From the NCBI GenBank assembly GCA_964373665.1, contig CAYJVM010000003.1, forward strand, positions 1 to 58,729: a stretch of 58,729 nt of DNA, written 5' to 3'. A program made the translations under genes and the position numbers. This stretch comes from an uncultured archaeon. Its GTDB lineage: Archaea; Aenigmatarchaeota; Aenigmatarchaeia; CG10238-14; SCSR01. The notes under the pieces are model-generated. The model ran no database searches. It saw nothing but the letters and a program-made list of their open reading frames with translations, and was not told the DNA's origin. Below are positions 32,604 through 49,248 of this stretch, piece by piece (within the stretch, counting starts at the first letter, position 1; each line of letters opens with the position of its first letter).

Positions 32604-32659
32604 CTACACGCCTGTCCATAGCGCATTAGGGCTTTTTCCGTTTAGCCATGAAATACAGA
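32604..32659. repeat. Dispersed repeat copy 1 downstream of target 1
   Basis: 52/56 identical to 49193..49248; 43 nt exact (32617..32659). Confidence 0.95.
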
Positions 32660-32689
32660 ATAATAAACAAGGAAACACAATTTAATTTC

Positions 32690-33313
32690 ATGAAAGTCCT
32701 TCTTGGTAAAGATGCTGAAAGAATGCTTACGGGCATGCCTGTTGCCAAAAGCTTTCTAATTAAAAAGGAAAATGAGTTGGTAAAAATCAAAAAATTCCCT
32801 GTAGTTATGAAAATAATTTCATCTAAAGCCGTTCACAAGACTGATATAAGTGGGGTAAATGTTGTAAATAATCAAAAAGAAGCACAAGATACATTTACTA
32901 AATTCACGAAATTGGCAAAATTGAAAAAAATAAAACTAACTGGAATTCTTGTTCAGGAATACGTCAAAGGTAGGGAGTTCATAATTGGCATTAAGAATGA
33001 TTCTACGTTTGGCCATGTGATCATGTTCGGTGCAGGTGGTATTTTTGTCGAATCATTGAAAGATGTCGCTTTTAGAGTATGTCCTATAAATGAAAAGGAT
33101 GCGGAAAGCATGTTGTCCGATTTGAAAAATCAGTGGCTGATTTCAGGCGTGCGTGGACAGAAACCGATTAACTCAAACATAATTAAGCAGTTGCTGGTCA
33201 GAATCTCTAAAATCCCGCAGAGGCGTAGAAACATTGAGGAACTGGATATCAACCCATTGATAGCTGACGAGAAAGGCGCGAAAATAGTCGATGTTCGGAT
33301 AGTAGTAAGATAA
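32690..33313 (+). CDS. acdB: Acetate/acyl-CoA ligase (ADP-forming) beta subunit
   Basis: HKTDISGV, VQEYV, FGHVIMFGAGG, ELDINPL; likely start ATG 32690. Confidence 0.9.
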   Translation: MKVLLGKDAERMLTGMPVAKSFLIKKENELVKIKKFPVVMKIISSKAVHKTDISGVNVVNNQKEAQDTFTKFTKLAKLKKIKLTGILVQEYVKGREFIIGIKNDSTFGHVIMFGAGGIFVESLKDVAFRVCPINEKDAESMLSDLKNQWLISGVRGQKPINSNIIKQLLVRISKIPQRRRNIEELDINPLIADEKGAKIVDVRIVVR

Positions 33314-33321
33314 ACTAATGC

Positions 33322-34046
33322 TTAATGAGATCGGCGTAAAGTAGAGAAGAAAACAGGTTCATTAACAGTCGTTGTAAAAGATCTCAAAGGCTGGTTAACA
33401 GGGATATCTGAAATAAGGTAATTATCGATTCGGTTTGCCATACCTTCAGCAAATACCATGTCTGCATACCCGGCTACAAAATTTACGTTGTCTCTTCTTA
33501 TCATCTTCGGAGCCAAGCCTTCTTTATAAGACCGGTTCAATTCACAACCACTGGCCCCTATTATTATTTGCGACCCATCGAATATGTCAGTAACAGCCTC
33601 CCCGAGATATATATGCTCACTTTGAGGCAGGACTGCTCTCAAAACACGGATATTTCTGTCTGAATTCAATCCGTCATTATAGTCATTTGTTCCCAGATAA
33701 AGTCTATAGGCAGCTTTCTTTAGCGCATAAGGAAACAGGTTTTCTCCGTAGTCTTTGTAAACCCTTCCATTCGTCCTGGAGCATACGCCTCTTATTCTTC
33801 CTTTAGTATCTATAGCAACGAGCGTGTATCCTCCTTCCCATGGGGCAACCAATTCACCATCGTCTCTCCTAAACTGGGATTTGGCAACAGCATCAGCGGA
33901 GGATTCAAAATACGCTTGAAATCTTTCGTCAGCTACACCGCGAAGAGCATCGTCATTTATTGTGAGTCTATGTCATTTAGAAACAAACGCAGAGATCCAC
34001 CGGCTGCAATCCGAGCTAGAGTTTGTTGAACGTCTGTAACCGTCAT
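33322..34046 (-). pseudogene. Hypothetical gene with apparent 1-nt frameshift near 33970
   Basis: ATG 34046 (TTAAATAA upstream) stops at 33957; the second frame is open from 33972 to 33322 but has no ATG near its 5' end. Confidence 0.6.
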
Positions 34047-34076
34047 AATCCCAACTCGCATACCAATTATTTAAGG

Positions 34077-47081: not shown

Positions 47082-48372
47082 AACTATTCTTCTTGGGGCA
47101 GCAGGTCGCGAATTTCATAACTTCAACATGGTATACCGTAACAATCCGAATTATGAAGTTGTTGCTTTTACAGCCACACAAATACCAGGTATAGCTGGTA
47201 GGAAATATCCAAAAGAATTGGCTGGAAAATTGTATCCGCAAGGTATTCCAATCTATTCAGAAACACTTCTAGCAGATTTAATTAAAAAGTTCAAAATTGA
47301 TTTAGTTGTGTTTGCATACAGCGATGTTACTCATGAGCATGTGATGCACAAGGCATCTATAGCTTTGGCAAATGGCGCAGATTTTGTTTTGTTAGGTCCA
47401 AATTCAACAATGTTGCACTCGTCCAAACCCGTGATATCTGTCACTGCTGTCAGGACAGGCTCTGGCAAAAGCCAAGTAACAAGAAAGATAGCAAAAATTC
47501 TCAAAAGTAGAGGAAAGAAAGTCGTAATTATTCGTCATCCAATGCCATACGGTAATTTAAGCAAGCAGATATGCCAGAGGTTTGCGTCGTACGACGACCT
47601 GGAAAAGCATAACGTGACGATTGAAGAGAGGGAGGAATACGAGCCACATATCAACAACGGGTTTGTCGTATACGCTGGCGTGGATTATGAAAAAATTCTG
47701 AGAGAAGCCGAGAAGGAGGCGGATGTAATTGTATTTGACGGGGGCAACAATGATTTCTCCTTCATCAAATCTGACCTGTACATAGTTGTCGCAGATCCGC
47801 ACAGAGCTGACCATGAATTAAAATATCATCCAGGTGAAGCGAATGTAAGGATGGCAGATGTAGTGATAATTAACAAGATAGACTCTGCTAAAAAAGAAGA
47901 CGTCAAAAGAGTGACGACGAATGTCAAGTCGATTAATCCAGAAGCGAGAATAATTCTTGCAAAATCCGTGGTGAGCGTTAATAAGCCTGATTTGATTAAA
48001 GGCAAACGAGTCGTCATAGTCGAGGACGGCCCTACATTGACGCATGGGGGTATGCCTTATGGGGCTGGCACGATAGCGGCGCGCAAGTACAAGTCGAAGA
48101 TAGTGGATGCCAGCAAGTATGCTGTCGGCTCCATTAAGGATGTGTATAAAGCGTTTTCACATTTGAAGAAGGAACTTCCGGCGATGGGATACAGCAAAGA
48201 ACAGATTAAGGAGTTGGAGAAGACGATAAATGCCGCAAAGGCCGATGCAGTTATTGACGCCACACCTGTTGCTCTAGGGAGATTGATTAAAATAAACAAG
48301 CCTGTTGTTGAAGTCGATTACGAGCTGGAGGAAGTTGGCAAGCTGGATTTGAGGAAGGTCATTAAGTTATAA
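47065..48372 (+). CDS. arcE: COG2403 P-loop protein, probable arginine synthetase (ArcE-like)
   Basis: GAAGREFHNFN, AVRTGSGKS, RHPMPYG, DGGNND, EDGPTLTHGGM; near arcC and OTCase. Confidence 0.75.
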   Translation: MNKPIRTILLGAAGREFHNFNMVYRNNPNYEVVAFTATQIPGIAGRKYPKELAGKLYPQGIPIYSETLLADLIKKFKIDLVVFAYSDVTHEHVMHKASIALANGADFVLLGPNSTMLHSSKPVISVTAVRTGSGKSQVTRKIAKILKSRGKKVVIIRHPMPYGNLSKQICQRFASYDDLEKHNVTIEEREEYEPHINNGFVVYAGVDYEKILREAEKEADVIVFDGGNNDFSFIKSDLYIVVADPHRADHELKYHPGEANVRMADVVIINKIDSAKKEDVKRVTTNVKSINPEARIILAKSVVSVNKPDLIKGKRVVIVEDGPTLTHGGMPYGAGTIAARKYKSKIVDASKYAVGSIKDVYKAFSHLKKELPAMGYSKEQIKELEKTINAAKADAVIDATPVALGRLIKINKPVVEVDYELEEVGKLDLRKVIKL

Positions 48373-48406
48373 AAGCATTTAAATCTTTTGCTGTCCTTTA
48401 CTTAGT

Positions 48407-49153
48407 ATGGTGCAATCAATAAAGCTATTGCCGCAGGAGCTGGCAGAAGCCCTGGTGAATATAGCCGTTTATCCAGCCAGGGAAGACTTTGCCCAAATAG
48501 GGGATTCTTCCGCATACAGCACTCCATTAAGGGCTTCAAGAGAATTCTCGGCAAACGGCAGAGATTATGTAAACAAAGATGGCGTAATAGTAAATCTTAA
48601 CCCGCCAGAGCAAGTGTTGCTTTTACAGTTATTGTCAAAAAAACTAGGTCTCCCATTAAGGCATGGTTATTTGAAGGAACAGCTAGAGGCGGCTTACTCT
48701 CCGCAGGGTCAGGCTTACAAACAGAATGTGCTGGTGCCTCTGTGGGTGTACACTGGCGAGATGATTGCAAAATCCGGCGATAAAAGCAAAATAGGCAGAG
48801 TGAAAGGCGTGGAAATAGTATCTGATGACCATGCTGTTTTTGAAGGAGAAGATCCTGATGCGAATGAATTGGTTGTCGTAAGATACAATCTGGGTCCGAT
48901 TCTCCAGACTGAGATTCCAACAAAAGAAGGTTATTTCGACCAAATATCCGGAGTTATTCCAGTGAACGGCGAGTTGAAATCTAGAAAAGGCAGGGGATAT
49001 TGGAACAGAGTTTATTTTGATAAAGGACTATCTGCTGTCAGGTGCTACTGGAACTCTGACGAGCAGAGGCTCGTCGCGGATGCGGTCAGGCCGTCGGTCC
49101 CGAACTTCATCGGTGCTCTGGGTACGTGGACGGAAGCCCCTCTTAATAAATAA
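48407..49153 (+). CDS. Putative DGR target protein 2
   Basis: Paralog of 54729..55448; C-terminal VR shared with it. Confidence 0.82.
   Translation: MVQSIKLLPQELAEALVNIAVYPAREDFAQIGDSSAYSTPLRASREFSANGRDYVNKDGVIVNLNPPEQVLLLQLLSKKLGLPLRHGYLKEQLEAAYSPQGQAYKQNVLVPLWVYTGEMIAKSGDKSKIGRVKGVEIVSDDHAVFEGEDPDANELVVVRYNLGPILQTEIPTKEGYFDQISGVIPVNGELKSRKGRGYWNRVYFDKGLSAVRCYWNSDEQRLVADAVRPSVPNFIGALGTWTEAPLNK
49037..49129 (+). repeat. DGR variable repeat VR2
   Basis: 75/93 identical to VR3; mismatches mostly at codon positions 1-2. Confidence 0.85.
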
Positions 49154-49192
49154 ATCTAACTAATTCTATCTTGTCCTGGCGATGAGCCTGGA

Positions 49193-49248
49193 CTACACGC
49201 TGGCACATAGCGCATTAGGGCTTTTTCCGTTTAGCCATGAAATACAGA
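49193..49248. repeat. Dispersed repeat copy 2 downstream of target 2
   Basis: 52/56 identical to 32604..32659. Confidence 0.95.

Follow-up and report, generated by a model that had tools for sequence, protein, structure and literature searches.

We investigated a repeated element in a 58,729-nucleotide stretch of DNA from an uncultured aenigmatarchaeote (hereafter the window), where it stands behind two genes of the variable-region (VR) type, targets of diversity-generating retroelements (DGRs). The element is already catalogued: its copy behind the second gene is RT-16 RNA by the Rfam threshold. The repeat is very probably the 5′ portion of RT-16, a DGR leader RNA of Aenigmatarchaeota, and its copies in this genome very probably are relics of units that have lost their template repeat (TR) and reverse transcriptase (RT). 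The window is contig C3 of an 876-kb metagenome-assembled genome (32 contigs, 92% complete), and near-identical loci are known from groundwater Candidatus Aenigmatarchaeota.

A first-pass annotation of the window had noticed an exact 43-nt repeat at 32617 and 49206, lying within a 56-bp element downstream of the first two of three presumed DGR targets. Both observations were borne out. The 43-mer, CATAGCGCATTAGGGCTTTTTCCGTTTAGCCATGAAATACAGA, has two exact copies on the + strand (32617-32659 and 49206-49248), with no further window copy at up to 3 mismatches and 0 matches in 100 dinucleotide shuffles of the window. The surrounding 56-nt repeat (32604-32659 and 49193-49248) is 93% identical between copies, and each copy starts 40-55 nt past the stop codon of a small gene, target 1 (T1, 31773-32549, +) or target 2 (T2, 48407-49153, +). 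The 43-mer was also found in both window contexts in Logan contigs of 4 independent DNA runs, so the repeat is not an assembly artefact. The remaining details of the annotation held as well: the two upstream genes are only distantly related (both are VR-type, with no mutual similarity by tblastn at E ≤ 1e-3), the hairpin GTCCTGGC-GATGA-GCCTGGAC precedes the second copy at ~49173-49193, and nothing similar follows target 3 (T3, open reading frame (ORF) 54729-55448, +).

Genome-wide, there are five VR-type genes, which fall into class A (T1 and T1′, the latter on contig C7) and class B (T2, T2′ on contig C5, and T3). A covariance-model search of the whole genome found exactly 3 copies of the element, 3/3 directly behind VR genes and thus not placed at random with respect to them; the third copy, at 11942-12078 of C5, follows the target-2 paralog T2′ and carries 2 changes within its core. 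The model, R1, was built in-house from 15 leaders outside the window. It scored the target-2 copy at 153 bits and the target-1 copy at 73 bits, with the 5′ part alone aligned in the latter. Across the class, R1 detected copies in 29/301 genomes and 23/150 genera, and most distant copies have a TR and then an RT downstream. A protein-coding reading was rejected: ORF 49182-49379 spans the element, and this frame is broken in relatives (a TGA in L020; indels in L023 and in the second L016 copy).

The identity of the element was given by the Rfam covariance model RF03019, "RT-16 RNA", which scored window positions 49174-49333 at 66 bits against a gathering score of 50. The same model gave 58.8 bits for the C5 copy and ~89 bits for intact relatives, while the target-1 copy (32604-32659), a 56-nt fragment and too short, fell below every Rfam threshold. 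The target-2 and C5 copies have the P2 and P4-P6 helices of the family, its CUACAC linker and its GGCUA end, and the proximity to RT genes by which the family is defined holds in intact relatives; the window copies differ in being truncated and without an RT alongside. Both P2 and P4-P6 carry compensatory pairs in relatives; in the target-2 copy the 3′ strand of P2 is deleted and P5 contains a mismatch. Of three guesses made in the first-pass annotation, that of a small RNA came nearest, in that a structured non-coding RNA has the element as its 5′ part, although the intact RNA is not retained here. In Weinberg et al. (2017; PMC5737381), RT-1 to RT-19 are described solely by their proximity to RT genes; RT-10 is assigned to the spacer between TR and RT of phage BPP-1, the other RT motifs are speculated to act in other DGRs, and no specific role is given to RT-16. 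In the literature that we searched, there was no account of a role for RT-16, of its position between target and TR, or of its pairing with the TR-RT spacer.

We further investigated the element where it is intact. About 20 copies outside this genome were recovered by a DNA search of 61 related genomes and by exact-pattern scans of genome and metagenome contigs. Wherever enough upstream sequence exists, the upstream gene ends in a lectin-type VR region. In 11 of the 20 copies, the element is followed by ~60 nt of conserved spacer, an A-rich TR and then an RT of 320-390 amino acids with YxDD and LGNLTSQ motifs, whose start lies 236-296 nt past the invariant GCCATGAAATACAG; two more copies show the TR on a contig that ends before the RT. 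An intact-locus RT matched Pfam RVT_1 at E=8e-19. The intact order is target/VR, S1, S2, the near-invariant CUACAC linker, P2 5′ strand, conserved core and P4-P6, followed by the P2 3′ strand, TR, S2′, S1′ and the RT gene, with no ORF between target, TR and RT. This arrangement shows that the element belongs to the retroelement and sits between target gene and TR. The mismatches between TR and VR fall at TR adenines (15/16, 15/15 and 16/17 in three relatives), and the relatives' elements are therefore genuine DGRs. The association with an RT locus thus stands for intact relatives, where the RT lies downstream, and not for this genome, which lacks an RT; 10 of the 23 copies examined, the window's included, are relics. 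In their small DPANN genome, groundwater-type metagenomes, lectin-fold VR proteins, several targets per genome and adenine-specific mismatches in relatives, these elements resemble the known DGRs of DPANN archaea and candidate phyla radiation bacteria (Paul et al., 2015, PMC4372165; surveys in PMC5758913), with the difference that the present genome keeps targets and leader relics only.

The RT genes of the intact loci show a further feature. In 6 of the 11 loci (L016 at ~9100-9200, L018, L030, L031, L035 and L056), the frame breaks near the 3′ end of the RT gene, at a (GA)6-7 run (..TLTPRERE..) or a G8-9 run, and the conserved C-terminal segment LEGWFGYVMHGNTYKLRKK resumes in another frame or, in L016, past an in-frame TGA; the other 5 loci have a continuous frame. 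This looks like on/off switching by repeat length or like recoding, the duller option being assembly error at simple repeats. At the distant loci L066, L068, L077, L078 and L088, runs of 9-11 G immediately precede S1 or the RT start codon; these may be further homopolymer switches.

The structure of the RNA was examined in an alignment of 12 intact loci from S1 to the RT ATG. RNAalifold predicted 41 pairs, 19 of them with compensatory changes. In the structure described below, 94.2% of cells are paired, versus 28-42% when the partners are slid, and 17 pairs are changed on both sides, a number reached by 0/500 shuffles. In P2, GCCUGUCCAU (the initial CAT of the 43-mer is part of it) pairs with GUGGAUGGGC immediately before the TR, and the two strands covary, as in GCCAAUUCAU/AUGAAUUGGC and GCUGACAUAU/GUAUGUCGGC. 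In P4-P6, UACAGAGGCGACAG.. pairs with ..CUGAAGCUUCAGUG; because these strands pair with each other, the palindrome CTGAAGCTTCAG forms no local hairpin. The AGUA/GAA loop of P4-P6 is sarcin-ricin-like according to JAR3D, a loop listed in both RT-16 and RT-10 (PMC13085918). On the other side of the TR, S2 together with CUA pairs with UAR and S2′ right past the TR. This S2 helix was measured in a separate alignment, A3, comprising 15 nt per side placed by sequence anchors alone in 20 loci of many genera: 87.5% was paired, 7/10 pairs were compensatory (for example GCUCGGGCUAU/AUAGCCCGAGC and AGCCUAGGCUAU/AUAGCCUAGGCU), and the covariation score was reached by 0/500 shuffles. The alignment replaced an approach using duplexfold and shuffles, which discriminated poorly for the long-range helix, since large loops are permitted.

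An outer helix, S1:S1′, ends ~8 nt ahead of the RT ATG and covaries in the same way (TCCTGGGC/GCCCAGGA, TCCCGGCA/TGCCGGGA, TCCTAGGC/GCCTAGGA, ACGGTAGT/ACTACCGT and UGUCUUGGCAU/AUGCCAAGACA). In class B (L025), the whole of TCCTGGCGATGAGCCTGGA, GATGA loop included, is complementary to TCTAGGCTCATCACAGGA before the RT ATG. Judging from this complementarity, the hairpin ahead of copy 2 seems better explained as half of a long-range helix, the other strand of which was lost by deletion. The non-Watson-Crick pairs of all these helices are G.U on the sense strand, which indicates that the helices form in the sense RNA. By contrast with the paired strands, most of the 35-nt core of the 43-mer is unpaired. 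The core is near-invariant across the genus; distant members have a simple variable hairpin in place of GCAUUAGGGCUUUUUCCGUUUAGCC, followed by the conserved AUGAAAUACAG. A pairing GGCUACACG:CGUUUAGCC inside the core, predicted by RNAalifold on a short alignment (A2) that missed P2 owing to staggered 3′ ends, was set aside, its columns being near-invariant; it could be a pseudoknot at most. The homology between TR and VR ends at GAAUA|A, the start of the S2 helix, and in L016 it begins inside the P2 3′ strand. Separately, a short conserved AATTCTA(T) stands behind the target stop codon, 5-10 nt upstream of S1, at most loci (32568-32574 and 49164-49170 in the window). It could be a TATA-like promoter box, in which case transcription would start past S1, in conflict with S1:S1′, or it could be a part of the RNA or a processing site.

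With the intact order at hand, we could see what was lost in this genome. The assembly contains no RVT_1 match and no full RT, only RT-tail fragments, and no TR for VR1, VR2 or VR3 (blastn-short at word size 7 gave paralogous VRs only). Behind target 1, on the + strand, S1 (ACGGTAGT, 32578-32585) and S2 (TCCCAGG, 32597-32603) have no pairing partner left; in the relative G003 (L018), the partners of these strands, ACTACCGT and CCTGGGA, stand just ahead of the RT ATG. The 56-nt repeat follows at 32604-32659 (+), with the CTACAC linker, the P2 5′ strand GCCTGTCCAT, the core (32620-32653) and the start of P4, TACAGA. This relic breaks off at ~32656-32659, which leaves only the first 56 nt of RT-16, joined to the promoter region of the downstream gene acdB.

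The target-2 relic, also on the + strand, is longer. It opens with S1-GATGA-S2, GTCCTGGCGATGAGCCTGGA (49173-49192), which is the stem P1 of the Rfam RT-16 and the hairpin of the earlier annotation. The RT-16 body spans 49193-49317 and contains CTACAC, the P2 5′ strand (49199-49208), the core (49209-49242), the P4-P6 stem-loop with its AGUA/GAA loop (49243-49307) and the joiner AAAACTTGGT; it lacks the P2 3′ strand and the TR. The body is joined within CTTGGTGG (49311-49319) to an RT 3′ end at 49318-49379, (W)TGYIMHENTCKLRRRLEIS*, which resembles the RT C-termini ..EGWFGYVMHGNTYKLRKK.. of L020, L023 and L049. The TR and ~95% of the RT gene are thus deleted at this locus. Behind T2′, the leader ends earlier, at ..GAAGCTCAG, and is followed by SFYTLPPRERESINNVLEGWFGYAMHRNTYKLRKRI.. 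of the RT tail; both class-B copies retain the last 17-45 codons of the RT. Since RT-16 runs directly into the end of the RT gene, TR and RT were lost by internal deletion, and since the junctions differ, the T2 and T2′ deletions were separate events. The same fusion of leader to RT tail occurs in L038 and L047, from other samples. Gene order agrees: G006 has a cobW-like gene and, further on, target, RT-16, TR, RT, carbamate kinase, OTC and ALDH, the window has the cobW-like gene, T2, the relic and carbamate kinase, and in G007 the cobW-like gene is directly followed by carbamate kinase.

As an observation in its own right, four independent TR-RT deletions (T2, C5 at ~12055-12065, L038 and L047) all retain the last 17-45 RT codons, and at two of these the junction falls within a short shared word (TGG/GGTGG in T2, TGTCA in L047). 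The words suggest microhomology-mediated deletion; selection for the RT gene end is possibly involved.

Several points weigh against reading the copies as relics of RT-16 units. First, Rfam draws S1/S2 as the local hairpin P1, and this fold is possible, with 78.6% paired; no compensatory change was found for a local S1:S2 hairpin. Second, an RT-TR unit could sit in the 8% of the genome that is missing. Runs X1-X4, whose samples hold this genome, also contain a class-A leader that is joined to a TR (loose ends at 49222 and 49320). Its ends, ..CATAGTGCATTAAACAACTT.. and ..TTAGGCTAAATTAGCTGTCATTCGTGGCAA, are identical to G003 over the 30 nt shown for each, and it most likely derives from a co-occurring relative, with an unbinned piece of this genome as the less likely source. 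Third, zero mutations across 43 nt in two relics is unexpected for old junk. Such undecayed relics may reflect recent loss or some residual use.

That use would be by the neighbouring genes: the T5 tract of the core (TTTTT) would serve as an archaeal terminator of the VR gene, and the ..GAAATACAGA end as the upstream part, similar to a TFB-recognition element (BRE), of the acdB promoter. In keeping with this, the target-1 relic ends exactly at a TATA-like AGAATAATAAA, ~30 nt ahead of the acdB start, and G005 has AAAGAATAAG in the same place. The gene concerned, acdB (32690-33313, +), encodes the ATP-grasp subunit of an ADP-forming acetyl-CoA synthetase and probably starts at the ATG at 32690: within the long ORF, the Pfam ATP-grasp_5 alignment sets in only at residue 28, and the G005 ortholog begins MKVLLGKDAE. 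A start at the ATG at 32648, inside the relic, was rejected, since that ortholog begins at the second ATG. Against retention for the neighbours, efficient termination at T5 would block the element's own RNA at intact loci, and the C5 copy has its core changed at 2 positions. Moreover, intact elements of other genomes (L030, L035 and L040) carry the same 43-mer without a change. Because the core is a near-invariant consensus of the genus, its exact identity between two relics needs neither a recent copy event nor a local function. We therefore consider it unlikely that the relics are kept for their neighbours.

The first-pass annotation had also raised a cis element for remote retrohoming, in which the copies would be working sites at which a distant DGR, acting in trans, recognises and rewrites the genes. 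Every copy does follow a VR gene, the RT could lie in the unassembled part of the genome, and the class-A leader joined to a TR comes from the same samples. Homing in the Bordetella phage reportedly needs a hairpin downstream of the VR, as Guo and colleagues are said to have found in 2011. The assembly, however, contains neither RT nor TR, and the intact element adjoins the TR on its upstream side, in one stretch with TR and RT, and forms pairs with the TR-RT spacer, which places it in the donor RNA and not at a recipient site. The sole TR of G006 matches the adjoining VR only, and neither the target-3 ortholog nor the target that carries a relic leader. In addition, the copies are truncated at different points, T1′ and T3 lack the 43-mer altogether, and the class-A element lies ~200 nt away from the VR. 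A working cis site is accordingly very unlikely, and the element is better seen as the retroelement's own RNA.

The third idea, a recombination end of a mobile VR-gene cassette similar to an integron attC, is the least probable and can hardly be upheld: VR genes with the tail do occupy unrelated loci, one of which is empty in G007, and in the T2/C5 duplication the gene is copied together with its tail (91% identity over 931 nt), but reading the 56-mer and its flanks directly revealed no GTTRRRY core or other recombination-site features, the ends vary by copy (T1/T1′ homology stops inside the element), conservation tracks RNA helices with sense-strand G.U pairs, and the duplicated unit was a DGR that later lost TR and RT, with unlike junctions in T2 and C5.

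We then considered what RT-16 might do in an intact element, using the DGR RNA of Bordetella phage BPP-1 for comparison (Handa et al., bioRxiv 10.1101/2023.10.23.563531). In BPP-1, a primer strand in the spacer (Sp47-56) pairs with the 3′ end of the TR (TR117-129); after a 2-nt linker, a stop strand (Sp59-70) pairs just upstream of the TR (avd); next come a small hairpin, a single-stranded "thumb ring" and an RT-binding stem-loop. Duplexes bracket the TR at both edges here as well, P2 at its 5′ edge and S2+CUA:UAR+S2′ at its 3′ edge, both with compensatory changes. The parts also follow one another similarly: S2+CUA, the linker CAC(G), the P2 5′ strand, a hairpin, a conserved A-rich single strand and P4-P6, whose sarcin-ricin-type loop is listed for RT-16 and RT-10 alike (PMC13085918). 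The two RNAs differ in that the structured block here is upstream of the TR, with ~25 nt (S2′ and S1′) between TR and RT ATG, in the extra outer helix S1:S1′, and in that neither an Avd gene nor an Avd-binding stem-loop was seen. Avd (PF05635) was absent from the 7 genomes searched, namely this one and 6 with intact or near-intact RT-16 elements.

From this analogy, backed by covariation, we infer that RT-16 may be the permuted counterpart of the phage TR-RT spacer RNA. More specifically, and with confidence that falls somewhat short of even, we propose that RT-16 could be the domain for priming and RT binding in an archaeal DGR that lacks Avd and whose RNA is circularly permuted relative to that of the Bordetella phage. 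The primer strand would be S2+CUA, the stop strand the P2 5′ strand, the thumb-ring-like strand the core of the 43-mer, and the RT-binding stem-loop P4-P6; all four would lie 5′ of the TR and reach its ends by long-range helices. The RNA would be transcribed from upstream of S1. S2+CUA would then pair with UAR+S2′ at the 3′ edge of the TR, in a geometry like that of primer and template, and P2 would clamp the 5′ edge, as the stop duplex does in the DGR RNA of the Bordetella phage, while the conserved core and the P4-P6 stem-loop would bind the RT. RNA of the BPP-1 type primes its cDNA from the 2′-OH of an internal adenosine; by the same comparison, the A of CUA in CUACAC, invariant in 20/20 A3 loci, is a candidate branch-point primer. 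Weighing against this proposal, the RNA 5′ end, the priming site and RT binding are all placed by analogy.

Among the target genes themselves, T1, a lectin/FGE-like gene with a weak FGE-sulfatase match (E=0.0012), has its VR end at ~32400, followed by a C-terminal tail of ~50 amino acids. It shares 48% amino-acid identity with T1′, which keeps its leader only as far as ..CTACACGCCTGTTCAT, and 58% with its ortholog in G003, which has RT-16, TR and RT downstream and TR/VR mismatches that are 15/15 at TR adenines. In T2 the VR (~49037-49130) lies at the 3′ end; the gene is 84% identical to T2′ and 40% identical to T3, and an adjoining TR is present in the class-B ortholog group of G001 (L025), with 16/17 mismatches at adenines. 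T3 has no leader relic behind it, and its ortholog in G007 is still trailed by S1-S2, CTACACGC, the P2 5′ strand and 17 nt of the core.

Some features of the surroundings deserve mention on their own. A pair of minus-strand genes, one HEPN (30635-31138) and one nucleotidyltransferase with a winged helix-turn-helix (31083-31643), lies between acdA and T1, so that the pair and T1 together split acdA from acdB; G005 has a class-B-like target between these genes instead. Next to the cobW-like gene is a LAGLIDADG-like ORF (45810-47081, +), a paralog of which (32% identity) is found in G006 (L016, 5823-7007, −), on the opposite strand and side of the cobW-like gene and directly upstream of a DGR target. 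A 47-nt direct repeat (18985-19031 and 19549-19595; 98% identity, spacing 564 nt) overlaps minus-strand ORF starts and looks like a duplicated gene start. Elsewhere in the genome, a different repeat of ~70 nt, ..atgaaCTACACGCaccctaaagggcgcggtatcttaaaagaaaggaagctatag.., has 4 copies, on C6 (~33413, −), C11 (~28927) and C20 (~8481 and ~9910); it shares only CTACACGC with RT-16 and has no Rfam match and no adjoining VR gene.

Altogether, the three "DGR targets" of the window and the tail shared by two of them are orphaned genes with pieces of a catalogued RNA, and the proper annotation would be RT-16 relics and decayed DGRs, with no new element. At the same time, an orphan Rfam motif gains a defined place in archaeal DGRs, together with a covariation-backed model of how an RT that works without Avd could locate the start and stop of its template. 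One RT and a single RNA of ~330 nt would be enough for a direct test of this structural model. For the organisms, the comparison across the genus, in which the RT is kept in 4/11 genomes, indicates that the retroelements are lost repeatedly while their targets persist.

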